Positions 996 through 59,072 of a stretch of DNA of 64,000 nucleotides are shown here, piece by piece. How positions within the stretch are numbered: position 1 is the first letter of the stretch; the number at the start of each line of letters is the position of its first letter. The notes under the pieces are model-generated. The model ran no database searches and was not told the origin of the DNA. It worked only from the letters and a program-made list of their open reading frames with translations. Origin of the DNA: Bacteroidales bacterium (lineage in GTDB: Bacteria > Bacteroidota > Bacteroidia > Bacteroidales > UBA4417); assembly GCA_963677975.1 (NCBI GenBank), contig OY782677.1:1665821-1729820 (forward strand), in the 5' to 3' direction. The position numbers and the translations under genes were made by a program.

Positions 996-3959
996 TTACC
1001 CGATAATCTCACGTATAAAACAGTGTATTACTTTATTTGTACCTGCAAGGTATACATTGCTTATAAATTCGGCATGTATTTTCTTCCCGTTGGCCGTTTC
1101 GAGCGGCAAATTCTCATAACGGACTATCTCCTTCTGCTGCAGTTCGATAAATTTATCTTTATTGGCAACTATATCTTTCAGGGGGCTGATTTCCCAGATT
1201 GCTTTTTCGATGAATTGTTCTTTTGAATACCCTAACAACCCGATTAAAAACGGGTTCACATCCACAATTTTCCCGGTGGCGGCATCGAGTATCAGGATAC
1301 CATCCTTAGCCATTTCAAAAATACTCCGGTATCGAATTTCGGAAACCTCAAGAACGTCTTTGGTTTTTGATATTTCTATTTCCAGTTTTTTCGATATGGT
1401 GATATTGTTGAACGTGATCACCAGCCCGTCGATGCGGTCGTCAATTGTGCGATACGGCATAATCCTGACCGTATACCACTTCCCGTCGGTGGTTTGAATT
1501 TCCGATTCGATTGTTGTTAGCGTTTTCAGTACTTTAAGCGTATGCTTCTCAATATCAGGATATATCAGGTTCGAAACCAGGTCGGTGAATGGTCGGCCTA
1601 AATCGCTGGTGCGGAGTTTAATTATATCGTGTAGTGTTTCGGTATACCTTCGGATATTAAGTTCCTTATCGAGGAAAAGGGTTGCTATTTCGGTACTGTT
1701 GAGCAGGTTTTTCATGTCGTTGTTGGCGAGTATGAAATCACCTACCTTGCTCTGAAGTTCGATATTCACAGTCTGAAGTTCTTCGTTCAGGCTCTGCATC
1801 TCTTCTTTCGAAGTAGTGAGTTCTTCGTTGGTCGACTGCAGTTCTTCGTTCGATGACTGTAATTCCTCATTGGTTGATTTCAGTTCTTCCTGTGACGACT
1901 GCATCTCTTCGCGTATACTCTGCATTTCTTCCTGGCTCTGCATCAGTTTGGATTCCAGTTCAATCGAGCGGATTTTCGAAATCCGTCTCCCGGTCTTCGA
2001 GCCAGGAAGCATTTGTTCTGAAACTGACGGCACATCAGTAAATACCACAATTATTTTTCCCCGGAGTAACTCCGGGCTTTCGATCCGCTGAACTGTTACG
2101 TTCACAAACAGGGTGCCCCCGTTGGTTCCAACTTTAATATTACGCAAAACCACTGGGTCGAAATGCGTCATTGCCGAACGGAAAGCCCCGGGTAATATAT
2201 CACGTAACCCTTCGCGCGACATGGCATGAATGTTCAGGTTGGCTTTGCCGGCAAGCGGTTCGAGGTATTTGCCGGTACGCCCGGTGATATAAATAATATC
2301 GCCTTTATCGTTTACCAGGACGCTTGGCGGGGCATACCGCTGAAGCAAAATCTGGTCGGTAAGAGTTTGCAGGCTGTCAGCCGGTTTAGTATGTGAAACT
2401 TCGGGTGTTATTCCATGTTTTTTTGGCTTGAAAGAACTCGGAAAATCAATGAGTTCAGGAGGCTGGGATATTGTATCGCGTTTGTAAATTTTCAGGCGGG
2501 TATCAATTTCGGTGAACCCTTCCTGCCGGTTTCCGATGGTTTCGGCGGTACCAAGCAGCAATATTCCTCCAGGGTTCAGACTATAATTGAAAAGTGAGAT
2601 GAGTTTTCCCTGGAGTTCAGCTTCCATGTATATCATCATGTTACGGCAGCTCAGTAATTCGAGTTTTGTAAATGGAGGGTCCTTAATCACATTCTGGGTC
2701 GCAAACACCACCATCTCACGTATGCTTGCATTCACCCTGAAATTATTGACTTCAGGTGTAAAGAACCGGCTGATGCGTTCCGATGAAACATCGGAAACTA
2801 TATTTGATGGGTAAATACCCCGTCGTGCTATTTCGACGGCATCGCTGTCGAGATCTGTGGCAAATATCTGTATACTATGCTTCTTCAGGGGTTTGATTTT
2901 TTCAAGTACTTCTTTAAAAACCATGGCTAACGAATAGGCTTCTTCGCCGGTTGAGCAGCCGGCAACCCAGGCACGAACCACATTTCCGGCTGGTAGCCGG
3001 TTAATCAGGTCAGGAATGGTCGATTGTTTAAGCTTATCCCAAACGGCCTTATCACGGAAAAAACCGGTTACTCCTATAAGCAACTCTTTAAACAATATTT
3101 CAATTTCTTTGGGATTTTCCTGGCAGTAGCGGACATAATTACTGATCTTTTCAATCTGGTGAATACCCTTGCGCCTTTCGATACGGCGAATAAGGGTGTT
3201 TTTTTTATACAACGAAAAATCATGACCCGACTGTTCGCGAAGCAGGATGATGATCTTATCAAGGTTACTCTTGTCCAGATTGTCCGGTTCGGAAAAAGTT
3301 TTAATCCCCGGAATAAAATTCAGAAGGGAGATCAGTTTTGCCGGCAATTCATCGGCTGGGGCCACAATATCTGCGATCACAGCATCAATGGCATTGCGTG
3401 GCATACTGTCGAACTTCGCCGAAGCAGGCGACTGTACCAAAACCAAACCATGATTTTCTTTTATTGCTTTCAACCCGAGGCTCCCGTCAGAACCCATCCC
3501 CGAGAGTATAAGCCCTATACTTTTATCTTTCCGGTCGTTTGCAAGCGAACGGAAGAAAATATCGACCGGTAAACGTAATCCGCGCGTTTCGACCGGATCG
3601 AAAAGGTATAGCGCCCCATTCAAAATTTTAAGGCTTTTATTAGGAGGGATAACGTACACACAGTTGGGTTTTATCTTCATATTATCGCTTGCCGGGAAAA
3701 CCTTCATGGGTGTAATGCGTTGAAGCAACTCAGGCATCATGCCAACATGGTTAGGGTCGAGGTGTTGAATAACTACAAAGGCCATCCCGTTATTGGCAGG
3801 CATATTCTGGAAAAACTGCTCCAATGCTTCGAGTCCTCCGGCCGAGGCACCAATACCTACGATAGGGAAATCGGTTTTGACAGGGATACTGTTTTTTGTT
3901 GTTTTTGAAACGGGTATTGCTTCCCCGGCATTTTGGGCATTGGTTTTTCGTGTTACCAT
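996..3959 (-). CDS. CheB-type methylesterase / CheR-type methyltransferase fusion with coiled coil and C-terminal PAS domains
   Basis: 987-aa ORF. N-terminus IVGIGASAGGLEALEQFF...VVIQHLDP is CheB-like. Central SAM-methyltransferase region (RAWVAGCSTGEEAYSLAM) is CheR-like. A heptad block EELKSTNEELQSSNEELQSTNEELTTSKEEMQSLNEELQ follows, then PAS-like segments. I saw no HisKA/HATPase motifs. Confidence 0.85.
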   Translation of the reverse strand: MVTRKTNAQNAGEAIPVSKTTKNSIPVKTDFPIVGIGASAGGLEALEQFFQNMPANNGMAFVVIQHLDPNHVGMMPELLQRITPMKVFPASDNMKIKPNCVYVIPPNKSLKILNGALYLFDPVETRGLRLPVDIFFRSLANDRKDKSIGLILSGMGSDGSLGLKAIKENHGLVLVQSPASAKFDSMPRNAIDAVIADIVAPADELPAKLISLLNFIPGIKTFSEPDNLDKSNLDKIIILLREQSGHDFSLYKKNTLIRRIERRKGIHQIEKISNYVRYCQENPKEIEILFKELLIGVTGFFRDKAVWDKLKQSTIPDLINRLPAGNVVRAWVAGCSTGEEAYSLAMVFKEVLEKIKPLKKHSIQIFATDLDSDAVEIARRGIYPSNIVSDVSSERISRFFTPEVNNFRVNASIREMVVFATQNVIKDPPFTKLELLSCRNMMIYMEAELQGKLISLFNYSLNPGGILLLGTAETIGNRQEGFTEIDTRLKIYKRDTISQPPELIDFPSSFKPKKHGITPEVSHTKPADSLQTLTDQILLQRYAPPSVLVNDKGDIIYITGRTGKYLEPLAGKANLNIHAMSREGLRDILPGAFRSAMTHFDPVVLRNIKVGTNGGTLFVNVTVQRIESPELLRGKIIVVFTDVPSVSEQMLPGSKTGRRISKIRSIELESKLMQSQEEMQSIREEMQSSQEELKSTNEELQSSNEELQSTNEELTTSKEEMQSLNEELQTVNIELQSKVGDFILANNDMKNLLNSTEIATLFLDKELNIRRYTETLHDIIKLRTSDLGRPFTDLVSNLIYPDIEKHTLKVLKTLTTIESEIQTTDGKWYTVRIMPYRTIDDRIDGLVITFNNITISKKLEIEISKTKDVLEVSEIRYRSIFEMAKDGILILDAATGKIVDVNPFLIGLLGYSKEQFIEKAIWEISPLKDIVANKDKFIELQQKEIVRYENLPLETANGKKIHAEFISNVYLAGTNKVIHCFIREIIG

Positions 3960-6149: not shown

Positions 6150-7931
6150 ATGCAGGATGTTACGCGCTTATTCGATATTCTTCCGCATTATGCAAACTCC
6201 TTTAAGCCCAAGGATGATGTGCTTGCAGGAAAAGATAATGGTATCTGGGTAAAATACTCAATTGCCGACTATATATCACATGCTGATAATATAAGTTATG
6301 GTTTACTGAAGCTGGGAATTAAGCCCGGCGATAATGTGGCTACCATTTCGGGCAGTCGCCCTGAATGGAACCTTGTCGATATGGGCATACAACAGGCAGG
6401 GGCTATTCATGTTCCTATCTATCCTACTATAAGTGAAAGCGATTATAAATACATTCTGGAACATGCTGAAGTTAAGGTGATCTTTGTTTCAGGTCGCGAT
6501 ACATTTCGCAAAATCGAACACCTGGTTGATAGCCTTAAAGGTTTGGTAGCCATTTATGCTTTCAAGGAAACAGAAAGCATTCAACATCTAGATGCCCTGC
6601 TTAAGCTTGGCAAGGATAATGCTGATCCTACGAAAATCAAGGAATTAAAAGCCAGCATTGTCCCCGATGACATGGCTACAATTATCTATACCTCTGGAAC
6701 AACAGGGAATCCGAAGGGCGTAATGCTCACTCACCGGAATATTATTTCCAATTTTATGGCGGTGAAGGATATTCCTCCTGTAGGCGAGGAAGGCCGGGCT
6801 TTGAGTTATCTTCCTCTTTGCCATATATATGAGCGCATGCTGGTTTACCTCTATCAATACCTTGGAATTTCGGTTTATTATGCTGAAAACCCGGCAACTG
6901 TCGGTGAAAATATGCGCGAGGTTAAGCCTGATATTCTGAGTACCGTTCCGCGGCTTCTAGAAAAGGTGTATGATAAGATCATTGGTTCGGGACGCAAACT
7001 TACCGGGATCAAAAAATTGATTTTTTTCTGGGCAGTCAATGTTGGTATGCATTACGAAATGTATGGTGCCAAAGGAATGTATTATGGTCTTAGGTTAAAA
7101 GTAGCACGCAAACTTGTTTTCAGCAAATGGCAGGAAGCCCTGGGTGGTAACCTGAAAGTTATTGTGAGTGGAGGTGCCGCATTACAGCCCCGGCTCGCAC
7201 ACATTTTCTGGGCTGCCGGTATCCCGGTGCTGGAAGGTTACGGCCTAACCGAGACATCACCGGTTATAGCAGTTAATAATTTTGAAGAAAACGGTGTAAA
7301 ATTCGGAACCGTTGGCCCTGTTGTTGCCGATACCACGGTAAAAATTGCTGAAGACCACGAAATACTTGTAAAAGGTCCTGGCCTAATGCTGGGTTATTAT
7401 AAGGAACCTGAACTTACAGCCGCAGCTATCGACACGGAAGGCTGGTTTCATACCGGTGACCTCGGGCGCATGGAGCCGCAGGGCCAGCTTAAAATTACCG
7501 GACGCAAAAAGGAAATTTTCAAAACTTCGTTCGGTAAATATGTAAGCCCCGAAATGATTGAAAACAGCCTCAAAGAGTCTGCTTTTATAGATGCTCTTAT
7601 GGTGGTTGGCGAAAACCAGAAATATGCGGCAGCTATTGTTGTTCCTGACTTCACCCACCTGCGCTCATGGTGCCAGATCAAAGGTATAACCTATACTACA
7701 AATGCCGAAATGATCGCCCTCGAACGGATAAGGAAACGCTATCAGAAAGAAATTTCAAAATTTAACAAGCATCTTGGGGCAACGGAACAGATCAAATCAT
7801 TCGAATTGCTCGATTCGGAATGGACCGTCGACTCAGGAGAACTTACTGCAACTTTAAAGCTCCGCCGCAAACTCATCAGCGACAGGTACGCGGCAAGCAT
7901 TGCTAAATTGTTTAATAAAAACGACGATTAA
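6150..7931 (+). CDS. long-chain acyl-CoA synthetase (AMP-forming), paralog 1
   Basis: 593 aa. AMP-binding signature IIYTSGTTGNPKGVMLTHRN, GYGLTETSP, and TGDLG...GRKKEIFKTSFGKYVSP. Confidence 0.88.
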   Translation: MQDVTRLFDILPHYANSFKPKDDVLAGKDNGIWVKYSIADYISHADNISYGLLKLGIKPGDNVATISGSRPEWNLVDMGIQQAGAIHVPIYPTISESDYKYILEHAEVKVIFVSGRDTFRKIEHLVDSLKGLVAIYAFKETESIQHLDALLKLGKDNADPTKIKELKASIVPDDMATIIYTSGTTGNPKGVMLTHRNIISNFMAVKDIPPVGEEGRALSYLPLCHIYERMLVYLYQYLGISVYYAENPATVGENMREVKPDILSTVPRLLEKVYDKIIGSGRKLTGIKKLIFFWAVNVGMHYEMYGAKGMYYGLRLKVARKLVFSKWQEALGGNLKVIVSGGAALQPRLAHIFWAAGIPVLEGYGLTETSPVIAVNNFEENGVKFGTVGPVVADTTVKIAEDHEILVKGPGLMLGYYKEPELTAAAIDTEGWFHTGDLGRMEPQGQLKITGRKKEIFKTSFGKYVSPEMIENSLKESAFIDALMVVGENQKYAAAIVVPDFTHLRSWCQIKGITYTTNAEMIALERIRKRYQKEISKFNKHLGATEQIKSFELLDSEWTVDSGELTATLKLRRKLISDRYAASIAKLFNKNDD

Positions 7932-8116
7932 CCACTTGGTTGTGACTGAGTAGATTATGAATCGATTTCGAAAATCGTGTTTTGACTATAATTATACCCG
8001 GGCGATCAAAATTGTAATAAATGAAATCCAGGTCCGTTTTAAAAGGACCTTTATTAGTTAAAGGTAGATTTTTCAGGGAAAAAAGGAATTGAATTACCAT
8101 TTCACAAGTTAGACCG

Positions 8117-9895
8117 ATGAACGGAGTTACCCGCATTTTCGATCTGCTTCAGGTGGCCGGAAAGCGTTATAGACCGGGCCGTCCGGTATTATATGGAAAA
8201 AATAACGGTATCGTTTTCAGTGTAGATGCCGAAACCTACTCCCGCAATAGCTTCTCAATCGGTAAGGCGCTAATGGATTCGGGCATTAAACAGGGCGACA
8301 GGGTTGCTACGATAATAAACAATCGCCCTGAATGGAACTTTTTCGATATGGCTATCGGACTTATCGGTGCCGTGCAGGTCCCGGTTTATCCTACGCTTAG
8401 CGAAGATCAGATCAGGTATATATTCAGGGATGCATCCATTTCAGGCCTGGTTGTTAATGATTCTTTAATTTTCGAAAGGATTAGGACTGTTGCTGCCGAA
8501 ACTCCTTCCCTGAAAATTATTTTTTCGGTCGACCCGGTTCCGGGGCTTACATGCCTTAACAACATGCTAAGTGAATATATACCCGGAATCCCGCATAGTG
8601 ATGTCAGGGCAATTGCTGATAAAATATTACCATCCGCACTCTTTGCTATTATTTATACTTCGGGGACAACCGGCAGACCAAAAGGGGTAATGCTTTCGCA
8701 CAATAACCTGGTAAGTAATTTCCTTGCACTTACCCAAATCCTTGCACAGCAACCGGTCGCAAAAGCGGCCAGTGTGCTTCCTCTCTGCCATATTTACGAA
8801 AGGATTTTGAATTATACCTACCAGAATTCAGGAACGGCAATATGGTATATCGAAGGATTCGATAAGTTACGCGAAAACCTTGCCGAAGCACAGCCCGACA
8901 TGTTTTGTGCCGTACCGCGTTTGCTGGAAAAGCTTTTTGATGCCATTATGGCAAAAGGCCGCGACTTTAAAGGCATAAAACGATTCCTTTTCTTTAGGGC
9001 AATTGCTGTCGGGCAGCAATACGAACCCTATGCAGAATTTGGTTTGTTCTATCATATTCAACTGGCTATATACCGCCGGCTTGTTTTTAAAAAATGGCGC
9101 GATGCTCTTGGAGGCAAACTGATTTCAATAGTTTCGGGTGGTGCCAGTCTTAATCCCAGAATTGCCCGTATTTTCTGGGCGGCAGGTTTTAAACTCATGG
9201 AAGGATACGGACTTACGGAAACATCGCCGGTTATTGCTGTGAGCAATTTTCTTAAAGGCGGTGCACGTACCGGCACTGTGGGGCCGGTTTTGCCGGGAGT
9301 CGAACTGAGGTTTGCTCCCGACGGCGAAATCCTTGTTCGTGGCCCGAACGTAATGCTTGGTTATTATAAAAGACCGGAACGAACTGCCGATGTAATTGAT
9401 CCCGAAGGTTGGTTCCATACCGGTGATATTGGTCAGCTGGTCGATGGTACATACGTTCAGATCACCGACAGGAAAAAGGAAATCTTCAAAACATCGGGAG
9501 GAAAATATATTGCACCCCAGGTGCTGGAAAACCGGTTTAATGAATCGGCTTTTATTGAACATATTGTCATTATCGGAGAAAACCGCAAACATCCCTCAGC
9601 TATAATTGTTCCTGCATTCGATTACCTGAAAAGCTGGTGCAGGGTGAAAAGAATAAAGTATACGACCGATGCGGAAATGATCCGTCATCCGCGAATCATA
9701 AACCGTATTGAAGAGGAGATCTTCAGGATTAACCAGCATTTTGCCCGTCACGAACAGGTAAAAAAATGGGAAATTATAGCCGACCGCTGGAGCCCCGACA
9801 CAAGAGAACTGTCGCAGACACTGAAACTCCGGCGTAAATTCCTGAATGAGAAATATGCTGATTTGATTGAGAAAATCTACGAAAACCTGGAGTGA
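8117..9895 (+). CDS. long-chain acyl-CoA synthetase (AMP-forming), paralog 2
   Basis: 592 aa, collinear with the upstream paralog (IIYTSGTTGRPKGVMLSHNN, GYGLTETSP, DRKKEIFKTSGGKYIAP). Confidence 0.88.
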   Translation: MNGVTRIFDLLQVAGKRYRPGRPVLYGKNNGIVFSVDAETYSRNSFSIGKALMDSGIKQGDRVATIINNRPEWNFFDMAIGLIGAVQVPVYPTLSEDQIRYIFRDASISGLVVNDSLIFERIRTVAAETPSLKIIFSVDPVPGLTCLNNMLSEYIPGIPHSDVRAIADKILPSALFAIIYTSGTTGRPKGVMLSHNNLVSNFLALTQILAQQPVAKAASVLPLCHIYERILNYTYQNSGTAIWYIEGFDKLRENLAEAQPDMFCAVPRLLEKLFDAIMAKGRDFKGIKRFLFFRAIAVGQQYEPYAEFGLFYHIQLAIYRRLVFKKWRDALGGKLISIVSGGASLNPRIARIFWAAGFKLMEGYGLTETSPVIAVSNFLKGGARTGTVGPVLPGVELRFAPDGEILVRGPNVMLGYYKRPERTADVIDPEGWFHTGDIGQLVDGTYVQITDRKKEIFKTSGGKYIAPQVLENRFNESAFIEHIVIIGENRKHPSAIIVPAFDYLKSWCRVKRIKYTTDAEMIRHPRIINRIEEEIFRINQHFARHEQVKKWEIIADRWSPDTRELSQTLKLRRKFLNEKYADLIEKIYENLE

Positions 9896-16611: not shown

Positions 16612-17260
16612 GAGAAAGAATTTTGAAGAAACCGCCCTTTATACGGCTGAATCGCTTTTGCAAATTAAAGCAATAAAGCTTGATAATGCGAATCCTTTTA
16701 CCTGGGCTTCAGGTATAAAATCACCGATTTATTGCGACAACCGCCGCACTTTATCTTATCCGAAAATCCGCACTTATATCCGCCAGGAGTTTGTTAAACT
16801 CATAAATGAAGAATTCGGTACTGTTGATGTAATTGCAGGCGTTGCTACAGGTGCAATTGCAATCGGGGCACTGGTTGCTCAGGAGTTGGGCCTGCCTTTT
16901 GTTTATATCCGTTCCGAAAAAAAGAGCCACGGCCTCGAAAACCAGATTGAAGGCGTGGTCGAAAGCGGCCAGTCGGTTGTAGTGATCGAAGACCTTATTT
17001 CGACTGGTAAAAGCAGCCTTAATGCTGTATATGCTCTGCGCGAAGCTGGTTGCAATGTTAAAGGAATGGCCGCTATCTTTACATACGGGTTACCCGATGC
17101 TGAAGAAAGTTTCAAAGCCGCCAACTGCATTTTACACACCTTAACCAACTATAATTTCCTAATCAGGAAAGCCCTCGAACAAAACCAGATTAAGGATTCG
17201 GATATGCAATCACTCATACAGTGGCGCGAAAATCCAAAAGCGTGGGGGCTCGATAAATGA
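16610..17260 (+). CDS. pyrE: orotate phosphoribosyltransferase
   Basis: MRKNFEETALYTAESLLQIKAIKL...FTWASGIKSPIYCDNR...VVVIEDLISTGKSS (PRPP-binding motif). I chose the ATG at 16610; the track start at 16529 is an extension that overlaps the NUDIX gene. Confidence 0.9.
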   Translation: MRKNFEETALYTAESLLQIKAIKLDNANPFTWASGIKSPIYCDNRRTLSYPKIRTYIRQEFVKLINEEFGTVDVIAGVATGAIAIGALVAQELGLPFVYIRSEKKSHGLENQIEGVVESGQSVVVIEDLISTGKSSLNAVYALREAGCNVKGMAAIFTYGLPDAEESFKAANCILHTLTNYNFLIRKALEQNQIKDSDMQSLIQWRENPKAWGLDK

Positions 17261-17664
17261 GCAGGCGCATCCAAAGTCAATGGACTGATATAGCTTGTGA
17301 GCCGGAAAAAGTTTTCAATTTTCTGGGTAATTTCGATAATTTCGAAAGCCTGCTGCCTGACCAGGTCGAAAACTGGCAGTCAACAGGCAATTCGTGTTCA
17401 TTCGATGTAAAAGGACTTGCCAGTCTGGGATTTAGAATTACTTCCAAAATACCGTTTGCTAAAATTTGCATGATCGGTGAAGGCAAACTACCCTTCAATT
17501 TTACGTTCAATACCGAAATTAGAGAAACAGCTCCGGGCAAATGCCAGGTTCAGGCAGTAATCGATTCCGATATGAGCCATTTTATCGCTATGGTGGCTGA
17601 AAGACCACTACAAAACTTTATCGATCTCATAGTAGTAAAACTGAAAGAGGAAATGGAAAAGTAA
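17257..17664 (+). CDS. SRPBCC-fold (START/polyketide-cyclase-like) protein
   Basis: 135 aa. ATGA overlap with the pyrE stop. The family call rests on pattern memory only (...VFNFLGNFDNFESLLPD...). Confidence 0.5.
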   Translation: MSRRIQSQWTDIACEPEKVFNFLGNFDNFESLLPDQVENWQSTGNSCSFDVKGLASLGFRITSKIPFAKICMIGEGKLPFNFTFNTEIRETAPGKCQVQAVIDSDMSHFIAMVAERPLQNFIDLIVVKLKEEMEK

Positions 17665-17696
17665 TTTCCACAATTGTTCATCAGAAGTTTATTACA

Positions 17697-17733
17697 AACA
17701 GCATCCCGGCAGGTACTTATACCTGCTGTTTTT
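17697..17733 (+). terminator. rho-independent terminator after pyrE operon
   Basis: aacag-(bulge)-caggta ctta tacctg ctgtt followed by TTTTT. Confidence 0.6.
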
Positions 17734-17785
17734 ATTTAGTCTGTATAACAAATATATTTATTGTGAATCTATATAAAGTTTGATT

Positions 17786-17793
17786 TATATTTG
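17786..17793 (+). promoter_or_regulatory. -7 box (TAtaTTTG) upstream of hdr-like cluster
   Basis: TATATTTG lies 104 nt upstream of the TTG start at 17897. Confidence 0.5.
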
Positions 17794-17896
17794 CCTTTTG
17801 CTTTGAACTTATCGTTAAGTTAAACTAGTTTTATGCTGATTGTAATGATATATAGCAAAATAAATAGAATGCTTCAACCTTTCAAAACACTGAAAT

Positions 17897-18607
17897 TTGG
17901 GAGAACTTTTCAATCGCCTTGCTTCGGATATCAGGTTTGTCGAAAGCCTTAAAGCCTGTATTAATTGCGGCACCTGCACAGCAATTTGCCCAGCTGCCGA
18001 ATTCTATACCTACGATCCGCGTGTGGTAGCCACTACCGTGCAAACGCAGGACGATGAAAAAATACGGGAACTCCTGAGCAGCGATGTGATCTGGTATTGT
18101 GGTGAATGCATGTCGTGCAAAACACGCTGTCCGCGCGGTAATGCTCCCGGCCTTCTCATCATGGCTCTTCGCGGGCTTTCACAGGACCTGGGATACTTTA
18201 CTGAATCGGAGAAAGGCCGCCAGCAATTGGCCGTTAAACGCATTATTGGCGACCAGATTTTGTCCTCCGGGTACTGTGTCCGGCCCGATATTGTTGACCC
18301 TGCTTTGCATCCTGAACAAGGACCCGTATGGGAATGGGAACATAAAAATCTTGGACCTGTACTCGATAAGCTTGGTGCAAATTATAACGGAGACGGGGCA
18401 GGCGCATTACGCAAAATATCGGATACCGACCTCGACGAATTAAAAAGGATTTTTGAAATTACAGGTGGCAAAGAACGGTACGATAATATCGAAGCTTTCT
18501 CAAAACTGAAAGCCGATGAAATGGGTCTTGAATTCGGAACTGATACCACCAGCGACTACGTACAGCATATTTATACTGCCAACAATCAAAAACATAACCA
18601 CGAATGA
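17897..18607 (+). CDS. hdrC: heterodisulfide reductase subunit C-like 2x[4Fe-4S] protein
   Basis: CINCGTCTAICP ... CGECMSCKTRCPRGN (two CxxCxxCxxxCP motifs in the HdrC arrangement). TTG is the only start after the in-frame TGA at 17891-17893. Confidence 0.75.
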   Translation: MGELFNRLASDIRFVESLKACINCGTCTAICPAAEFYTYDPRVVATTVQTQDDEKIRELLSSDVIWYCGECMSCKTRCPRGNAPGLLIMALRGLSQDLGYFTESEKGRQQLAVKRIIGDQILSSGYCVRPDIVDPALHPEQGPVWEWEHKNLGPVLDKLGANYNGDGAGALRKISDTDLDELKRIFEITGGKERYDNIEAFSKLKADEMGLEFGTDTTSDYVQHIYTANNQKHNHE

Positions 18608-19683
18608 AGCTGGAAGGGAAGAGACTTATTTGGCAGGACTACCAGAAAGAGATAGCCGACGATCATTATTTTTATGCACGAAGCTGCATAAGGCAGACTT
18701 TCTTCCCCGGTGCCGAAGCTGTTTTTGTAAAAATCCTGAAAGATGAACTTGGTAAGGATATTCATGACGAAAAGCACCATACTTCGTGCACTGGCATAGG
18801 CTACCATTCCGATGTTGTACCTTTTGATACTACCATGACCGTGGTTGCCAGGCAGTTTGCCCTGATGACCGAAGCCGGATACGAAAACTATGCTGCCTCA
18901 TGTGTTACCAGTTTCGGACTTTATACCGAAATTCTCGATACCTGGCATCATTTCCCCGAAACCGAAGCGAAAATCAGGGAGTTCCTGTTCAAAGCAACAG
19001 GGCGTGAATTTAATAAACCGAAAAACCTGGCCCATGCCAGCGATATTGTATATAAGTTCAGGCACCAGATTGCCGGCAAGGCTAAATATAAGCTGGTTGA
19101 TAAAGACACGGGTGAACCCTTAAAGGTGGTTGAACATATTGGGTGCCATTATTCGAAAATGTTTCCTCACAAAGGAATCGGTGGAGCTGAATACCCTTAT
19201 GTACTGTCAGGAATGATTGAAGCCTGGGGAGGCGAAGTGATCGATTACCCTGAGCGCCGCCATTGCTGCGGGTTTGGGTTCAGGCAATACATAGTACAGG
19301 CTAACCGCGGTTTTTCGCTTTCGTGTTCGAAAAAGAAATTCGATTCAATGGAGCCCTATGAGCCGGATATGATTATCACCAACTGCCCCGGATGCCCTAT
19401 GTTCCTCGACCGGTGGCAATATGCTCTAAGTGAAATGGAAGGGAAAACTTATGGGAAAGGGAAGAACGGAATTCCTGTTTTTACCTACGAAGAAGTTGCA
19501 GGTTTAATAATGGGATACGATCCCTGGGAAATCGGGCTGCAGGTGCATCAGGTCCCGGCCGAACCCCTTCTTGATAAAATAGGAATACCGTATGATTCGG
19601 AACGTAAATTTAAAGGGAAAAACGGGGAGGATCTCGGAATGCCGGAATCACCGTCGTATCTCAAGTTTTATGCAGATAAATAA
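18604..19683 (+). CDS. hdrB: heterodisulfide reductase subunit B-like CCG-domain protein
   Basis: HIGCHY...RRHCCGFGFRQ...ITNCPGCPMFLD (CCG domain) plus a degenerate N-terminal CCG-like half. ATGA overlap with the upstream gene. Confidence 0.75.
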   Translation: MKLEGKRLIWQDYQKEIADDHYFYARSCIRQTFFPGAEAVFVKILKDELGKDIHDEKHHTSCTGIGYHSDVVPFDTTMTVVARQFALMTEAGYENYAASCVTSFGLYTEILDTWHHFPETEAKIREFLFKATGREFNKPKNLAHASDIVYKFRHQIAGKAKYKLVDKDTGEPLKVVEHIGCHYSKMFPHKGIGGAEYPYVLSGMIEAWGGEVIDYPERRHCCGFGFRQYIVQANRGFSLSCSKKKFDSMEPYEPDMIITNCPGCPMFLDRWQYALSEMEGKTYGKGKNGIPVFTYEEVAGLIMGYDPWEIGLQVHQVPAEPLLDKIGIPYDSERKFKGKNGEDLGMPESPSYLKFYADK

Positions 19684-19699
19684 GTCTTCTTAAAGTCGC

Positions 19700-19817
19700 G
19701 GGTTCCAAATTCCAGGACATCAACCCATCAACCCATCAACAATCTAAAACCCTGAGTAACCATGTATATCTAAATAGCTTGAAACACTGAAACCCTGAAA
19801 CTTCTAAACACGGGTAG
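19700..19817. repeat. octamer arrays CATCAACC x3 (19718-19741) and NNTGAAAC x4 (19778-19809) plus flanking ttccaaattcca
   Basis: Read directly: gacatcaacccatcaacccatcaac ... cttgaaacactgaaaccctgaaacttctaaac acgggtag. Confidence 0.8.
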
Positions 19818-19880
19818 CACAATGAACCCCTGGCAGAGCCACTGAATTGCATTAATAAAGAAAACGCCCCCAAAATAAAC

Positions 19881-20900
19881 ATGCCAAAACACGTAATTGT
19901 TATAGGAGCAGGACCGGCAGGACTCGAAACATCGGCTAACCTGGCAAAGATGGGAATTGCTGTTACACTTGTCGAGAAGGAAGAATATACCGGAGGGCAT
20001 GTAAAACAATGGCATGCTCTGTTCCCTGCTTTACTTCCGGGGACTGAAGCCCTCGATGCGATCCGCAAAGGAATGCCCGAAAATGTAAGGGTGCAAAATA
20101 AAACAACGGTTACAGGTATCGAAGCGGTTAATAATTATTTTACAGTTTCGGGCCACAACGGCTGGCAGGAAAAGGCGGATGCCATAGTTTTCGCAACCGG
20201 TTTCCAGCTTTTCGATGCACACCGTAAGGAAGAATACGGTTATGGAATTTATGAAAATGTAATCACTTCGGCTGACCTTGAAGAAATGTTTGCCACAGGT
20301 AAAAGCCTTGTTAACCGCCATGGAAATAAACCCGAAAGAATAGGATTTGTGCATTGCGTGGGTTCCCGTGATGAGAAAGTGAATAACCTGCATTGCTCCA
20401 AGGTATGCTGTATAACCGCTGTTAAACAGGCTATAGAAGTGAAACAGATGCTTCCTGAAGCGGAGGTTTTCTGCTTTTATATGGACCTGCGGATGTTCGG
20501 CCGTCATTACGAGGAACTATATAAGGAAGCACAGGAAAAATACAATATTCAGTTTATAAGGGGCAGGCTCAGCGAATCAGCGGAGGACCAGGATGGTAAT
20601 ATAGTTCTGAAGGTTGAAGATACCCTACTTGGAAAACCTTTACGTATAAAAGCAGGATTGCTAGTACTTATGGTCGGAATGGAGCCTTCGGCAGGAACCA
20701 GATCACTTGCCGACAAGCTTGGTCTTACCAAAGTTCCTGATGGATTCATCCAGCCTGCTGATGAAGTATTGCAATCAAACTTTACCGATCTTCCCGGCGT
20801 TTTCGTTGCCGGAGCATGTTCAGGCCCCAAATCAGTATCCGACACTCTTGCCGATGCCCGTTCAGCAGCTCTTGCTGTAGCCGGTTTTTTAAAAATATAA
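19881..20900 (+). CDS. hdrA: short HdrA-like FAD/[4Fe-4S] flavoprotein
   Basis: VIVIGAGPAGLETSANLAKMG (FAD dinucleotide fold), the HdrA-specific cluster motif HCVGSRDEKVNNLHCSKVCC, and a C-terminal GVFVAGACSGPK. 339 aa. Confidence 0.78.
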   Translation: MPKHVIVIGAGPAGLETSANLAKMGIAVTLVEKEEYTGGHVKQWHALFPALLPGTEALDAIRKGMPENVRVQNKTTVTGIEAVNNYFTVSGHNGWQEKADAIVFATGFQLFDAHRKEEYGYGIYENVITSADLEEMFATGKSLVNRHGNKPERIGFVHCVGSRDEKVNNLHCSKVCCITAVKQAIEVKQMLPEAEVFCFYMDLRMFGRHYEELYKEAQEKYNIQFIRGRLSESAEDQDGNIVLKVEDTLLGKPLRIKAGLLVLMVGMEPSAGTRSLADKLGLTKVPDGFIQPADEVLQSNFTDLPGVFVAGACSGPKSVSDTLADARSAALAVAGFLKI

Positions 20901-20909
20901 ACCGGAAGT

Positions 20910-21257
20910 ATGGAAAAGAAGGCAAGGCAATTCGGATACACTATTACCCGCGACAGGCAGATCGATTTCGATGCAAACAAACACGATATAAGTAAGATTG
21001 TGGCTGCCGCAGAGCCTTCACTCAACCTTTGTATTTCGTGCGGAACCTGTTCGGCTACCTGCTCTGCAGCCTTGTTTACCGATTTCAGCCTGCGGCACGT
21101 AATCCTTCTCCTGCGAAGGGGCGAAACCCAGGGTCTTGCTAAAGAAGTTGCAAAATGCATGCTTTGCGGTAAGTGCCAGCTTGTTTGCCCGCGCAATGTG
21201 AGTACACGCAATCTTATTATCCAGATAAGCAAAGCCGTAACGCCTGTTCAGCCATGA
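20910..21257 (+). CDS. small HdrC-like 2x[4Fe-4S] ferredoxin domain protein
   Basis: CISCGTCSATCS ... CMLCGKCQLVCPRN. 115 aa. The stop overlaps the next start (ATGA at 21254-21257). Confidence 0.7.
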   Translation: MEKKARQFGYTITRDRQIDFDANKHDISKIVAAAEPSLNLCISCGTCSATCSAALFTDFSLRHVILLLRRGETQGLAKEVAKCMLCGKCQLVCPRNVSTRNLIIQISKAVTPVQP

Positions 21258-23083
21258 CCTTCGACCTTTTCGTGCTTCCGTTTTTCCTGGGTTTGTTGTT
21301 CCTGCTTGTTGTTCTGTTTATTAAATACAGCCGATGGATAGCCATGATGAGTGGCCCGGACCGGGTAAAAGCCGGGATGGCACTTTTCTCGGTGGGAATG
21401 CTGAAGACAATCTGGGAAGTCTTCCTCGAAAGCCTGATGCATCGCAAGATGTTCAAGCGGAATCCTTTGCTGGGATATATGCACATGAGTTTTGCACTCG
21501 GTTGGTTCCTGCTTATAGTAATGGGAAACCTGGAATCGCGAGTATATAGCGGCGGGCACATTAACCCACCATATTATCCCATTTTCCTGAAGTTTTTTAT
21601 TCACGATAAGAGGGTGCTTCCTTTCGAAATATTCACTTTGCCTGGATTTTTCAGGTTCACTATGGATTTGATTTTGCTTTTTGTGCTATCAGGTCTGGTT
21701 CTTGCCCTTTTCAAACGTACACGTTCCAAATGGTTTGGGATGAAACGTGCCACAAAACACAATAAATTTGATAAATGGGCAATTACTTCTCTCTGGCTCA
21801 TTTTCCCGATGCGTTTACTGGCCGAAAGTTTTACTGCAGGTTTGTACAAGGGAGGCGGTTTTATTACCAATTCTCTCGGCAGTATTTTTGATGCAATCCT
21901 GCCGCTCCAGTACCTGGCTTATCCTGCCTGGTGGGCGTATTCCACCATGCTCGGGATTTTCTTTGTCACGCTTCCATGGAGCCGGTTTATGCATATTCCC
22001 ACAGAGGTCATGCTTATTTACCTGCGTAATGCAGGGATTGAACAGGGCAAATATCCCGGAAGTTTTGCCGAACTGGAATTACGCGCCTGTCCGCGCTGCG
22101 GGGTATGCATAGATGTGTGCCAGATGAACGATGCCGGGCTGAATGGCTCAACCGCTGTCTATTTTATCCGTGCTTTGCGCGAAAACCGCGGCGAGGTGCA
22201 ACTCAACTCTAACTGTATGATGTGTGGACGCTGCCTGGAAGCATGCCCGGTTGGAATTGATACTCTTGGTTTACGGGTAGGAGCTAGGAGTGTAGATAAT
22301 AAAATAGTAGCCTCTGATTTTAGTTACCTTCTGCCAAAGCCATCTGATAAGAAGAATGCAGATGTTGTGTATTTCGCCGGTTGTATGGGGCATCTTACGC
22401 CTGGAGTTAAAAATGCCATGCAGAAGATTTTTAAAAATGCGGGGGTTAATTATAATTTCATTGACGAAGATGGTTCCATTTGTTGCGGAAGACCGCTAAA
22501 ACTTGCAGGTATAACAGATGCTGCATCCACGCTTACAGTAGAAAATACCCGGAAAATCCTTGAAACAAAAGCAAGCATACTGGTTACTTCCTGCCCGATC
22601 TGTTATAAGATTTTTAATAACGATTACAAACTCAAAGGGATGCAGGTAATGCATCATAGTGTTTATATCGACAAACTTGTAACCGAAGGCCTTTTAACCC
22701 TGCAGTCTTCCGCCCTGAGAGCTGTTTACCACGACCCTTGTGAACTTGGTAGGGGTTCGGGCGTTTACGAAGAGCCACGAAATGTGCTGAAACAAATTGC
22801 TGAAGTTGCCGATGTGGCCGAACAAGGCGTGAATTCGCTTTGTTGTGGCGGCAGTATAGGCGAACTTGGGATGAACTCCACCCAACGGAACACCATTCGC
22901 GACAGCGCTCTGAAAATGCTCTGCGAGCCACAGCCTGATGTGCTGGTTACTGCCTGTCCCTTGTGCAAAAAAACTTTCGATTCAGGCAACCAGGTTGCCA
23001 TAAAGGATATTGCCGAAATGGTCGCCGAAAGTATGATTATAAACCGTCAAGTGGCTAAAAGCAAAGAACTTGTTGAGGCCTGA
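21254..23083 (+). CDS. membrane-anchored Fe-S/CCG protein (NarI/DsrM/HdrE-like TM domain fused to HdrD/DsrK-like domain)
   Basis: Starts MTFDLFVLPFFLGLLFLLVVLF. About 6 hydrophobic helices carry His residues (YMHMSFALGW, SRFMHIP). These are followed by CPRCGVCIDVC and CMMCGRCLEACP, then CCGRP...SCPICY and CCGGS...ACPLC. The track start at 21173 is an out-of-context extension. Confidence 0.75.
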   Translation: MTFDLFVLPFFLGLLFLLVVLFIKYSRWIAMMSGPDRVKAGMALFSVGMLKTIWEVFLESLMHRKMFKRNPLLGYMHMSFALGWFLLIVMGNLESRVYSGGHINPPYYPIFLKFFIHDKRVLPFEIFTLPGFFRFTMDLILLFVLSGLVLALFKRTRSKWFGMKRATKHNKFDKWAITSLWLIFPMRLLAESFTAGLYKGGGFITNSLGSIFDAILPLQYLAYPAWWAYSTMLGIFFVTLPWSRFMHIPTEVMLIYLRNAGIEQGKYPGSFAELELRACPRCGVCIDVCQMNDAGLNGSTAVYFIRALRENRGEVQLNSNCMMCGRCLEACPVGIDTLGLRVGARSVDNKIVASDFSYLLPKPSDKKNADVVYFAGCMGHLTPGVKNAMQKIFKNAGVNYNFIDEDGSICCGRPLKLAGITDAASTLTVENTRKILETKASILVTSCPICYKIFNNDYKLKGMQVMHHSVYIDKLVTEGLLTLQSSALRAVYHDPCELGRGSGVYEEPRNVLKQIAEVADVAEQGVNSLCCGGSIGELGMNSTQRNTIRDSALKMLCEPQPDVLVTACPLCKKTFDSGNQVAIKDIAEMVAESMIINRQVAKSKELVEA

Positions 23084-23431
23084 TTCGTTTAACTAAAGCC
23101 ATCCTTATTTTCAATGACTTTCGAATGATATCGATTACTGCAGGCATAATGATCGCTTCCTGCATATTTCAGTTTATTCTGTTTTTCAAAAGCAATTCCT
23201 GTTATAAATCATATCCCGTAATTCTAGGCAGAACATTTGCTGCCAGGATTCATTTATCAGATATTTATTTATGCACTCATTCAAAATGGGATGCGGCTCA
23301 GTCAAATATTCCGAACACGCTGTTTTAGATTCATTTTTTTAGATATTCTGAATATAAAGTCAGAGAAGAAATACACTTTGGGCGCAATATTATATTAAAG
23401 TAATTATTTGATTATAAGTAAGATGTAATGA

Positions 23432-23453
23432 TTTTGAAAATATTTTTTCAAAA
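23432..23453. promoter_or_regulatory. 9-bp perfect inverted repeat ttttgaaaa-tatt-ttttcaaaa; attttttcaaaatgt also repeated directly at 23462-23476
   Basis: Read directly, upstream of the GntR gene. Confidence 0.5.
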
Positions 23454-23475
23454 TGTGCTTGATTTTTTCAAAATG

Positions 23476-23513
23476 TTGTATATTTGTACTATATAACTAG
23501 TACAAATATACAA
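23476..23513. promoter_or_regulatory. operator: perfect 16-bp inverted repeat TTGTATATTTGTACTA-N6-TAGTACAAATATACAA overlapping a TAtaTTTG -7 box (23479-23486)
   Basis: The reverse complement of the right arm equals the left arm exactly. It ends 8 nt before the GntR ATG. The GTACTA/TAGTAC core resembles YtrA-subfamily operators. Confidence 0.75.
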
Positions 23514-23520
23514 TAATGCC

Positions 23521-23919
23521 ATGATAAATTTTATTTTAGACCCGGGTGGCGGAATGCCTTTCTACCGGCAGATCATTGACCAGATAAAATTTGGGATTGC
23601 CTCAGGCAATTTAAAAACAGGGGAGCAGCTTCCAACTGTCAGGTCATTAGCGGTGCAGCTTAAGGTTAACCTTAATACCATCGCCAAAGCATACAAAGAA
23701 CTCGAAATCCTGAATATCCTCGATACCCAGCAAGGTTCGGGCACCTTTATCAATGCCAATGGGGTTGTGCTGAGCAATGAGGAAAAGCAAAAAAAAATCC
23801 AGGACATCTGTAAGGAATTTTTGACGGTTGCATACACCTACGGGTTTTCGAAAGAAAATGTGATCGCTGAACTGCAAAACAACAATCTAAACAACAATCT
23901 TAATCACAAACAATTATGA
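23521..23919 (+). CDS. GntR-family transcriptional regulator, YtrA-like (short effector domain)
   Basis: PFYRQIIDQIKFGIASGNLKTGEQLPTVRSLAVQLKVNLNTIAKAYKELE is a GntR winged-helix domain. 132 aa total. Confidence 0.85.
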   Translation: MINFILDPGGGMPFYRQIIDQIKFGIASGNLKTGEQLPTVRSLAVQLKVNLNTIAKAYKELEILNILDTQQGSGTFINANGVVLSNEEKQKKIQDICKEFLTVAYTYGFSKENVIAELQNNNLNNNLNHKQL

Positions 23920-26388: not shown

Positions 26389-27129
26389 TTAAATAATGAA
26401 CTTTACTTCTTTCAGATCACAGGTAAGCTGTTCACCCTCCTGGGTTTCGAGAAGTAACTGGCCGTAGGGATTGGTCCCGGTAATCATGGCTATTAATGCT
26501 GAGCCTCTTACTTCGTATTTCTGCCACTCCAATCTCCTGTAAAGGGCTGCTTGATAAGCTGTTTCGATTTCACTAAAAGTGCCTGGCATTACCTGTCTGT
26601 ATCTCCTGAAAATCGATATTAGGAGTTTTGACAACACAGTATCAAGATTGTAATCCATTCCGGTTCCCATTTTCATGGAAACTGGGTTTGGCGCATTTTC
26701 TGTAAAATGTGTCTGGTTCACATTGAGCCCGATTCCGGATACAACATAGTCAAGTTTATTCCCGATAACTGAGTTCTGTATTAATATGCCGCAGACCTTT
26801 TTATCTCCTACGTAAATGTCATTCGGCCATTTTATTGATATTCTTTGGTCAGGTAATTCGCCTGTGAGGAAATCGTAAATACCCAGCGAGATGGCTTTGT
26901 TGAGAATAAACTGCTTATCGGCTTTAAACTCCGGATAGAGTATGAGGCTGAAGGTGAGGTTTTTCCCTGTTTCACTTTCCCAGCTGTTTGTGTCGGTACC
27001 CCTGCCACTCGTCTGGTAGTCGGCCCGGATTACGCATCCTTCAGCAGGGCGTTGCTTTGCAATCAGCTCAATTGCATAGTTGTTTGTTGAGCCGGTTTCC
27101 GGAAGGTGGATAATTGTACTCTGTAACAT
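26389..27129 (-). CDS. birA: biotin--[acetyl-CoA-carboxylase] ligase (no HTH domain)
   Basis: ...QTSGRGTDTNSWESETGKNLTFSLIL...KWPNDIYVGDKKVCGILI. 246 aa. Confidence 0.82.
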   Translation of the reverse strand: MLQSTIIHLPETGSTNNYAIELIAKQRPAEGCVIRADYQTSGRGTDTNSWESETGKNLTFSLILYPEFKADKQFILNKAISLGIYDFLTGELPDQRISIKWPNDIYVGDKKVCGILIQNSVIGNKLDYVVSGIGLNVNQTHFTENAPNPVSMKMGTGMDYNLDTVLSKLLISIFRRYRQVMPGTFSEIETAYQAALYRRLEWQKYEVRGSALIAMITGTNPYGQLLLETQEGEQLTCDLKEVKFII

Positions 27130-30080: not shown

Positions 30081-30743
30081 ATGGAAGAAAGCACTTCGCG
30101 TGAAAAAGTATTAAAAAAAGTACGGCACGCCTTAATATATAAGACCGATAACCCTTATCCGAATGTTGATTTTGATTCGCCGGTATACAATCCTTTACCG
30201 GATTCACCGGATGTGAATTTTGCACAGGAATTCACCAAAGTTGGCGGGGTTTTCATTTATTGTGAAAATGAAGGCGACCTTATAAATACATTGTCGGCGC
30301 TTAGTACCGAATGCAACTGGCAAGATGTGTATTGCGGTGAACCTGAATTCCAGTATCTGCTTACGCAGGCTGGTGTGCCTTTCGAATCGGATGAGGATGG
30401 ATTGAAAACTCTGAAAGTTGGCATAACAGGATGCGAATTCCTGGTTTCAAGGCTGGGCAGTATCATGGTGTCGTCAAAAAACAGCCGCAGGCTTAATGTA
30501 TATCCCGAAATTCATGTGGTCATTGCATATGCCGATCAGCTTGTTGAGGATCTGAAAGACGCATTTACAGCTGTGCAGACAAAATATTCGGGAAAACTAC
30601 CTTCGATGCTGTCGGTAATTACAGGTCCAAGCCGTACTGCCGATATCGAAAAAACGCTTGTTATGGGAGCTCACGGCCCCCGCGAATTATACCTCCTCCT
30701 GGTTGAAACTCCCCAGGCTGAAGATGAGTCTGATGATTTATGA
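30081..30743 (+). CDS. LUD-domain (LutC/YkgG-like) protein
   Basis: 220 aa. ...GITGCEFLVSRLGSIMVSS...ITGPSRTADIE... matches the layout of the LUD/DUF162 family, by pattern recognition only. Confidence 0.55.
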   Translation: MEESTSREKVLKKVRHALIYKTDNPYPNVDFDSPVYNPLPDSPDVNFAQEFTKVGGVFIYCENEGDLINTLSALSTECNWQDVYCGEPEFQYLLTQAGVPFESDEDGLKTLKVGITGCEFLVSRLGSIMVSSKNSRRLNVYPEIHVVIAYADQLVEDLKDAFTAVQTKYSGKLPSMLSVITGPSRTADIEKTLVMGAHGPRELYLLLVETPQAEDESDDL

Positions 30744-55138: not shown

Positions 55139-55378
55139 ATGAAAATACGTAAAAATATAGCTACCAGCGACGAAGGTTTTATATTCAACCCGGCCACCGG
55201 TGATTCGTTCTCAACTAACACTATAGGCGCAGAAATTATTGCTTTGCTGAAGGACGATAAGAGCACGGCAGAAATTAAAGCCGCTGTCTGTGCAAAATAC
55301 TTTGTTGAGGAAATTCAGTTTGAGAAGGATCTTGACGACTTTGTCGCACAACTGAAGGAATCGTCCATCATGGAGTAA
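55139..55378 (+). CDS. PqqD-family protein (RiPP-recognition-element-like peptide chaperone)
   Basis: 79 aa. ...EGFIFNPATGDSFSTNTIGAEIIALLKDDKSTAEIKAAVCAKYFVEEIQFEKDLDDFVAQLKESSI follows the PqqD pattern (beta-strands, then G-x-x-I-W/L-x-L-L...E-I, then 'D...F...L'). Confidence 0.7.
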   Translation: MKIRKNIATSDEGFIFNPATGDSFSTNTIGAEIIALLKDDKSTAEIKAAVCAKYFVEEIQFEKDLDDFVAQLKESSIME

Positions 55379-55498
55379 TCAATCCGGCCACCAAGGTCCT
55401 TTTCGATTGAGGAACTATGGGGTATTTTATGGGTTGGTTTATTTTTACCATTAAAAAGCCAGGTATATTCAGGTAATAAACTGCAAAAATCACTTTCA

Positions 55499-56302: not shown

Positions 56303-56379
56303 AAATAAACATACAGCATCCCGTAAATCAGAAATAAACTTCGGATATAGTAGTTCGGTGAATTTTAAAATATTTGGAA

Positions 56380-57456: not shown

Positions 57457-57644
57457 TTCAAATCAGTGAAAAGGCCAATTAGTCAAAATAATAAGTAAAA
57501 GAGATATTACCATATACTGGAACGCGAAGGAAAGGGTTAATCGTTTTAAAATACTGGATTATAGCCAGCTACGGACTTCATGCTTCCGACTTGCTGTCTT
57601 ATAGAGGAATACAATGAAAATCAGAAAAAGTAAATCAGTACAAC

Positions 57645-58991: not shown

Positions 58992-59072
58992 TAAGTTAAA
59001 TCAACAATTTGAAGTGCCGGGAATTGTAATTTAGATTAATTTACTGCCTTGTTCAGCAACAGGAATACAAGT

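Follow-up and report, generated by a model that had tools for sequence, protein, structure and literature searches.

Enzymes built around the noncubane iron-sulfur clusters of heterodisulfide reductase (Hdr) are central to methanogenesis, sulfate reduction, and sulfur oxidation and, recently, have also proved central to beta-oxidation through EtfD and EMO. The sulfur-oxidizing Hdr-like (sHdr) systems fall into two types, type I with the gene order shdrC1B1AHC2B2 and type II with shdrC1B1AHB3-etfAB-emo; electrons of type II are proposed to reach menaquinone through EtfAB-EMO, the HdrB1 type of sHdr subunit is proposed to be catalytic, and genuine sHdr loci are always accompanied by genes of the LbpA, lipoate maturation, or sulfur transferase type (PMC11094781). 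EtfD and the EMO of Syntrophus (SaEMO, from S. aciditrophicus), both ETF:(methyl)menaquinone oxidoreductases, each unite, in a single chain, a NarI-like domain of five helices, an HdrC-like part, and an HdrB-like part, and both form a wire by which electrons from electron transfer flavoprotein (ETF) reach menaquinone via noncubane clusters, cubane clusters, and heme b (PMC13083937; bioRxiv 10.64898/2026.08.18.745454). In M. smegmatis EtfD (MsEtfD), the heme b ligands are H78 and H241 (PMC13083937). Here we describe a cluster of five genes, g1 to g5, from a Bacteroidales bacterium (assembly GCA_963677975.1, contig OY782677.1), found in a window of 64 kb, by which we mean the whole stretch of 64,000 nucleotides that was analyzed. 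Each of its modules is known; the combination is a C1-B1-A core of the sHdr type with a fused, apparently catalytic membrane subunit of the EMO lineage, and it occurs without Etf, sHdrH, or sulfur carrier genes and is conserved across Bacteroidales. We propose, with a probability of roughly one-half, that the five products form a single membrane-anchored complex that passes electrons between menaquinone and a cytoplasmic sulfur-based substrate by way of HdrA.

A conserved five-gene unit

All five genes are intact and run in the same direction, and an independent gene caller (source contig) gave the same five products. ATGA overlaps join g1 to g2 (18604-18607) and g4 to g5 (21254-21257). An earlier note on this DNA had described five codirectional genes with exactly these overlaps, and the coordinates agree with it; the same note had let the unit begin at 17786, which is not the start of a coding sequence, as the open reading frame of g1 is limited by an in-frame TGA at 17891 and the first coding sequence begins at the TTG at 17897.

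We scanned one genome per species and found at least 438 genomes with a relative of g5; the locus counts given here refer to the best 80 loci. In 61 of these 80, all five genes stand in the same order and on the same strand (tblastn), so that the arrangement seen in the window recurs elsewhere, as the earlier note's reading demanded, and chance can be excluded as its cause. The cluster is truncated by contig ends in another 13 (tblastn). g4 lies upstream of g5 without exception (80/80), and g1 and g2, like g4 and g5, have a median gap of -4 bp, which suggests two translationally coupled pairs flanking hdrA (g3); the median gap between g3 and g4 is 9 bp (48 loci), the same as at the window locus. 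Beyond the five genes, no family of neighbors was found in more than 13 of the 80 loci, and those that come closest are housekeeping genes. It is because order and strand are kept, g4 and g5 stay together, the 4-bp overlaps recur, and no other neighbor is conserved that we treat the five genes as one unit.

The carriers are labeled Bacteroidota or Bacteroidales in 77 of the 80 loci and include Odoribacter, Butyricimonas, Draconibacterium, Saccharicrinis, Plebeiibacterium, and Prolixibacteraceae. Marine Marinilabiliales are among them, and Odoribacter and Butyricimonas are cultured gut genera; with cultured carriers from both gut and sea, the proposal is directly testable. The three loci with other labels come from a metagenome-assembled genome (MAG) assigned to Syntrophothermus (L051), a MAG of an unclassified bacterium (L025), and an uncultured bacterium (L054). 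The first of these is a contig of 3.7 kb, binned as Syntrophothermus sp., with a typical cluster of the Bacteroidales type (51 to 77% identity), and it is probably a binning error and not an occurrence in Firmicutes.

Literature searches for hdr genes in Odoribacter, Butyricimonas, Marinilabiliales, or Bacteroidales turned up no account of the cluster, a negative that is no proof since coverage was incomplete, and the database labels of the cluster proteins are generic.

Products of the five genes

Pfam finds Fer4 and CCG domains among the five products, and the motif residues of all five are invariant across 60 to 75 homologs. The NCBIfam scores against the HdrABC models (151 to 256 bits) lie far below the equivalog cutoffs of 450 to 1400. 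g1 and g4 each carry two CxxCxxCxxxC motifs in translation, and for both the best NCBIfam match is HdrC, which agrees with the two HdrC-type di-cluster proteins named in the earlier note. g1 reaches 76.6 bits over residues 17 to 199 and spans nearly the whole HdrC model, with its long C-terminal extension included; g4 corresponds to the ferredoxin core only. Invariant are the eight Cys of g1 together with C127 (61 homologs) and the eight Cys of g4 (66 homologs).

g3 carries GAGPAG, of the flavin adenine dinucleotide (FAD) fold, and CVGSRD-x7-CSKVCC, and its best NCBIfam match is HdrA. The earlier note had correctly read a 339-aa HdrA with GxGxxG and this cluster motif, although it counted eight residues in a spacer (EKVNNLH) that has seven. 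The single [4Fe-4S] site is made up of C159, C172, C176, and C177, which are invariant in 74 to 75 of 75 homologs, and there are no ferredoxin insertions. Residues 3 to 333 align with residues 2 to 336 of the Hyphomicrobium sHdrA crystal structure 6TJR (3e-60), and the four cluster Cys are in register, an end-to-end match that sets g3 apart from the generic disulfide oxidoreductases with which, the note had allowed, it might group. The core also aligns with methanogen HdrA (2e-66; residues 98 to 334 plus the GxGxxG stretch). Over the same region, identity is 45% (44 to 46%) to methanogen HdrA and 34% to Hyphomicrobium sHdrA, and the cyanobacterial and Altiarchaeales-like proteins discussed below reach 53%.

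g2 carries the HCCGFG and NCPGC motifs of an HdrB-type CCG protein, again as first read. A placement with LutABC, GlpC, or SdhE-type subunits, which would have spoken against that reading, was not what we found: g2 scores 150.9 bits against NCBIfam HdrB, compared with 44.5 against SdhE, 33.3 against LdhH, and 16.4 against GlpC, matches solved methanogen HdrB (PDB) at 1.7e-31, and forms a clade with sHdrB1 (locus L090) at 92 to 100% bootstrap in neighbor-joining trees. Its C-terminal cluster site is complete (C181, C221, C222, C261, and C264), and its N-terminal site keeps three of five Cys (C28, S61/C62, and C100/S103), for a total of 8 of the 10 cluster Cys that methanogen HdrB has. The resulting C-S-C-C-S pattern of the first half, with two cluster Cys replaced by Ser, is common to g2 and sHdrB1. 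Of the five genes, g2 varies least, with 93 to 96% identity in the six closest loci (76 to 84% for the other genes), and its relatives are few, with 822 matches at an E value of ≤0.001 among 1.84 billion representatives. The variant N-terminal site (residues 59 to 68, HTSCTGIGYH) has a nearly invariant H59 and an invariant H68 around C62, and H68 is also present in Hyphomicrobium-type sHdrB1 (NYHGSG); H59 and H68 may be noncysteine ligands or substrate contacts.

The membrane protein g5 starts at 21254 in agreement with the N termini (MTF...) of 21 homologs. After about 260 N-terminal residues, it presents two CxxCxxCxxxC cubane motifs and two complete CCG sets (Pfam and translation), so the two ferredoxin motifs and two CCG motifs that the earlier note had listed are present; its count of about six His-bearing transmembrane helices did not hold. 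An AlphaFold (AF2) model built on 22 homologs (mean predicted local distance difference test score, 76) has five, at residues 5 to 30, 71 to 98, 131 to 156, 171 to 198, and 218 to 242, and H77 and H247 are the only invariant His residues at positions fit for heme ligation. Foldseek ranks M. smegmatis EtfD (9OJN) first among solved structures, with a match that extends along the whole of g5 (E value, 4e-19; query-normalized TM-score, 0.70) at a sequence identity of about 16%. By profile alignment, H77 corresponds to EtfD H78 and H247 to EtfD H241, where the aligned segments are not significant alone; both His residues are invariant across 22 sequences. The positive-inside rule favors a topology with the N terminus out, in which H77 and H247 lie where helices 2 and 5 reach the cytoplasmic side. 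We propose from the fold match and this subthreshold alignment that these two residues ligate one proximal heme b; a single heme is the likeliest because no second His pair is conserved within the membrane helices. The membrane domain is presumed to hold the menaquinone site as well.

The CCG domain of g5 retains 10 of 10 cluster Cys (C377, C410, C411, C447, C450, C496, C530, C531, C568, and C571), and I449 stands at the position of the occluding, cluster-capping His583 of EtfD. Because the 10 Cys are those of catalytic HdrB and an Ile takes the place of His583, the site looks catalytic by sequence and not like a pure wire. The domain forms a clade with that of EtfD at 100% bootstrap (neighbor joining), apart from sHdrB2; a first tree had put it in the HdrB2 lineage, an assignment that we dropped once the EtfD domain had been added. 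The NCBIfam scores of g5 (TfrB, 109.6; LdhH, 83.6; DsrK, 72.3, with a cutoff of 400; and GlpC, 59.1) are all far below the cutoffs.

Relatives outside Bacteroidales

Beyond Bacteroidales, the nearest relatives of g2 are from Altiarchaeales (about 46% identity), and relatives close to that Altiarchaeales protein occur in filamentous cyanobacteria; a protein from a Deltaproteobacteria MAG also has 46% identity to g2. Phormidium provided further cyanobacterial matches, and the gene context was examined for Planktothrix sp. FACHB-1355. The cyanobacterial and Altiarchaeales-like clusters (Table 1) are the closest sequence relatives of the window cluster, with 42 to 53% identity for C1, B1, and A and with the same gene order. 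Where the Bacteroidales cluster has its membrane fusion, the cyanobacterial cluster has a soluble HdrB2 of 288 aa. We know of no described function for this soluble cluster of Planktothrix, which lacks sHdrH and LbpA and has very large multi-PAS sensor proteins as neighbors; the HdrB1 cluster of the Planktothrix relative has 341 member sequences.

In the Altiarchaeales-like contig, whose HdrB1 is 80% identical to an Altiarchaeales cluster, the 632-aa protein aligns with g5 over the full length (37% identity; E value, 4e-142). An 83-aa ferredoxin with two [4Fe-4S] motifs is inserted between A and C2, and a further HdrC-HdrB pair follows the g5 homolog. The membrane fusion thus also occurs outside Bacteroidota. 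Taken together, the Planktothrix, Deltaproteobacteria, and Altiarchaeales-like contexts point to C1-B1-A as the conserved core and the second arm as the variable part. The idea, put forward in the earlier note, that a quinone-linked fusion replaces the second CCG subunit is backed by the C2-B2 and C2B2 forms of these sister clusters and by the EtfD/EMO fold of g5.

The proposed complex

The data show directly which genes are present, the cofactor motifs with their invariance, the EtfD-like fold of g5, the synteny, and the families to which g2 and g5 belong. In the arrangement that we infer, from complex formation and wiring to heme and quinone binding, substrate class, and electron direction, two copies of the short HdrA (g3), each bearing FAD and a single [4Fe-4S] cluster, would pair to form the hub. 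One arm would lead from HdrA through HdrC1 (g1) to the HdrB1-type site of g2 and the other from HdrA through HdrC2 (g4) to g5. Within g5, the path would comprise the noncubane clusters, the two cubane clusters, and one heme b, ending at menaquinone near the cytoplasmic face of the membrane. The substrate would be a thiol/disulfide or sulfane sulfur compound, handled at the noncubane clusters of g2, g5, or both. Such chemistry is the most likely because g5 has an open 10-Cys arrangement and g2 belongs to the type for which catalysis in sHdr has been proposed; the complex would then couple thiol/disulfide chemistry to menaquinone.

Several findings weigh against this proposal. The first is a three-gene form of the cluster, in which g3-g4-g5 occur without g1 and g2 although upstream sequence is present (6 of the 80 loci: L015, L023, L036, L053, L073, and probably L058, with more than 6 kb of upstream sequence in five and 1.5 kb in L058). 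Its hosts are Draconibacterium orientale MAGs, a Prolixibacteraceae MAG, and other Bacteroidales MAGs, and at least two of the loci (L023 and L036) have the same flanking genes as do loci with all five. Because five or six loci hold g3-g4-g5 alone, C1B1 either is not required or has its genes at another place, and the two-arm picture is weaker for it; A-C2-g5 may be functional without C1-B1. Second, the alignment of the g5 heme ligands with those of EtfD is by itself below HMMER significance, and a Pfam search with the g5 membrane domain alone gave no match even at an E value of ≤10, so that the affinity of this domain to NarI and EtfD is one of structure only. Third, no gene for a substrate carrier (LbpA, DsrC/TusE, DsrE, or TusA) is linked. 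Finally, the trees are neighbor-joining trees with few references, which leave out HdrD, DsrK, SaEMO, and type II sHdr.

If the proposal is confirmed, a further quinone-linked redox enzyme would have to be added to the respiratory and fermentative networks of Bacteroidales, and the soluble C2-B2, the fused C2B2, and the membrane fusion would make up a natural series of Hdr rewiring.

Boundaries and surroundings of the cluster

The terminator-like hairpin upstream of g1 (Table 1) terminates an unrelated gene of 135 aa and marks the 5' boundary of the unit. The -7 promoter consensus of Bacteroides is TAnnTTTG, and on this basis we take TATATTTG at 17786-17793, the point from which the earlier note had counted, to be a candidate -7 box. 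A scan with a sigma-70 model returned fewer promoter sites than in shuffled sequence, this model being uninformative for a Bacteroidota genome. The spacer between g2 and g3, which ranges from none to about 860 bp in relatives, contains the repeat CAACCCAT CAACCCAT CAAC at about 19720-19740 and may hold an internal promoter. A search of 17200-23700 against Rfam gave no match, the spacer included.

Table 1. Features of the five-gene cluster and related clusters (positions in the window unless a locus is named)
Feature	Position	Strand	Description
g1	17897-18607	+	HdrC1-like, 236 aa, TTG start
g2	18604-19683	+	HdrB1-type CCG (noncubane cluster) protein, 359 aa
g3	19881-20900	+	Short HdrA-type FAD/[4Fe-4S] flavoprotein, 339 aa
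g4	20910-21257	+	HdrC2-like minimal di-[4Fe-4S] ferredoxin, 115 aa
g5	21254-23083	+	Membrane protein, 609 aa
g5 membrane domain (aa 1-259)	21254..22030	+	AF2 model, EtfD/NarI-like
g5 segment	22076..22258	+	Pfam match; all eight Cys invariant
g5 CCG (noncubane cluster) domain	22361..22978	+	CCG, 88 bits, two stretches
Terminator-like hairpin	17707..17728	+	Found by consensus scan, as a consensus match only; stem of 9 pairs, then T run
Candidate Bacteroidetes -7 promoter box	17786..17793	+	TATATTTG; fits TAnnTTTG consensus
Variable g2-g3 spacer	19684..19880	.	Short direct repeat CAACCCAT inside
Planktothrix sp. FACHB-1355	L086 7281-11600		C1-B1-A-C2-B2, all soluble
Deltaproteobacteria MAG			C1-B1-A-fused soluble C2B2, no membrane domain
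Altiarchaeales-like contig	L089 4552-11511		C1-B1-A-ferredoxin-C2-(632-aa g5 homolog)-C-B

Elsewhere in the window, two tandem paralogous AMP-binding genes (acyl-CoA synthetase-like, 593 and 592 aa) occupy 6150-9895 (+), and a 987-aa fusion of CheB methylesterase, CheR methyltransferase, and PAS is encoded at 996-3959 (-), adjoined by hybrid histidine kinases just past the window start. A run at 55139-61283 (+) encodes a PqqD-like protein of 79 aa, a Por_Secre_tail protein, an ATP-grasp enzyme, an Orn/DAP decarboxylase, and a 736-aa protein with urea transporter and peptidase M23 domains; it may be a small-molecule or peptide modification cluster. A gene for a stand-alone LUD-domain (LutC-like) protein after ftsH (30081-30743, +) was considered as a member of the Hdr-like unit and rejected, being present only in the closest relatives.

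Comparison with known Hdr-like systems

The cluster resembles methanogen HdrABC (such as 5ODC and 9SFI) in the 44 to 46% identity of its HdrA core, in its homologous HdrB and HdrC, and in the same logic of an A-C-B wire. It differs in that g3, at 339 aa versus about 650, lacks the N-terminal and ferredoxin domains, in the variant N-terminal site of its HdrB, and in the addition of a second C protein and a membrane subunit. This kinship bears on a possible, if unlikely, alternative, in which the complex is a quinone-dependent enzyme of flavin-based electron bifurcation or confurcation comparable to FixABCX and HdrABC. HdrA would use its FAD to split electron pairs or to merge them, with menaquinone, reached through C2-g5, as the high-potential partner and a second partner reached through C1-B1 or a ferredoxin. 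The g3 core is indeed closer to the bifurcating methanogen HdrA than to sHdrA (45% versus 34% identity), FAD, B1, and quinone make three redox termini, and the Altiarchaeales-like cluster encodes an additional ferredoxin. However, the ferredoxin domains that g3 is without are those by which HdrA reduces ferredoxin, no hydride donor module (MvhD, FdhB, or an NAD-binding subunit) is linked, and the Bacteroidales clusters encode no extra ferredoxin. We regard as distinctly doubtful the more far-reaching version in which the cluster is a third architectural type of Hdr-like system, a quinone-dependent bifurcating or confurcating disulfide or sulfane sulfur oxidoreductase in which an HdrA flavin joins a catalytically competent heme b/menaquinone HdrE::HdrD fusion to a variant HdrB1. 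If true, anaerobic Bacteroidales, among them the Odoribacteraceae of the human gut, would have an unrecognized site of energy coupling, and relatives of it would exist in Altiarchaeales.

The sHdr systems share with the cluster the C1-B1-A order (which 61 loci keep), a short HdrA (about 340 aa) that carries FAD and a single [4Fe-4S] cluster, an HdrB1-type subunit with a C-S-C-C-S site, and a second ferredoxin, C2; for type II, too, electrons have been proposed to leave to menaquinone by way of a membrane protein of the EMO type. Given the sHdrB1 clade and the variant Cys pattern of g2, and given that sulfidic waters and sediments are the source of many carrier genomes (according to record titles), the cluster could be taken for a true sHdr orthologue that oxidizes LbpA-bound sulfane sulfur to sulfite with the help of accessory genes elsewhere in the genome. 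Yet identity to a Hyphomicrobium-type sHdr locus is only 27 to 34% (C1, 34%; B1, 27%; and A, 31%), and the genuine type I locus that we retrieved with the 6TJR sequence (DsrE3-C1-B1-A-H-C2-B2-hyp-LbpA...TusA) holds a 282-aa gene, sHdrH, where the Bacteroidales cluster has a 9-bp gap between g3 and g4. The cluster also has no separate HdrB2 or HdrB3 and no EtfAB, the EMO-type protein following directly after C2. Pfam matches across the 64-kb window reveal no sHdrH, LbpA, lipoate maturation, DsrE, TusA, rhodanese, EtfAB, or MvhD gene, which bears out what the earlier note had said of the lipoate-binding protein, DsrE/TusA, Etf, and MvhD; nor are LbpA, lipoate maturation, DsrE, TusA, rhodanese, or etf genes among the conserved neighbors of the 80 loci, whereas genuine sHdr loci always come with accessory genes. 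A BPL_LplA_LipB gene 3.3 kb downstream (26389-27129, -) was considered as a lipoate ligase and rejected, as it is BirA (135 bits, with a cutoff of 83). The hosts, moreover, are anaerobic Bacteroidales, fermentative gut anaerobes among them, and not known sulfur oxidizers. True sHdr orthology is therefore improbable, and the cluster is not a sulfur-oxidizing sHdr system in the strict sense.

It is very improbable that g5 is an ordinary EtfD or EMO for beta-oxidation or butyrate metabolism, with EtfAB elsewhere and its place beside hdr genes incidental: EtfD is its best structural and phylogenetic match, and ETF is expected in the butyrate producers Odoribacter and Butyricimonas, but g4 adjoins g5 in all 80 loci, mostly with a 4-bp overlap, g3 is adjacent wherever there is sequence, no etf gene is linked in any locus, the catalytic set of 10 Cys is kept without the occluding His, and the same linkage recurs in the archaeal-like contig.

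As the membrane subunit of the complex proposed here, g5 nevertheless has its closest likeness in EtfD and EMO, with which it shares five transmembrane helices, an HdrC-like part with two cubane clusters, and two CCG motifs in a single chain. It differs from them in its partners, which are HdrA and HdrC2 and not EtfAB, in keeping 10 Cys where EtfD has Thr539 and a linear [3Fe-4S] cluster and SaEMO is short of one Cys, and in lacking a long disordered C terminus. HdrA-HdrC2 would thus stand in the role that ETF plays for EtfD and EMO. Methanophenazine-dependent HdrED and DsrMK/HmeCD couple a b-type cytochrome anchor to a subunit of the HdrD/DsrK type that has two cubane clusters and a catalytic noncubane domain with 10 Cys, a design that g5 appears to follow. 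In g5, unlike in HdrED and DsrMK, both parts are fused, the one His pair makes it look monoheme as opposed to diheme, and the whole is combined with HdrA, C1, and B1. In the proposed wiring, g5 would be a single-chain equivalent of HdrE plus HdrD.

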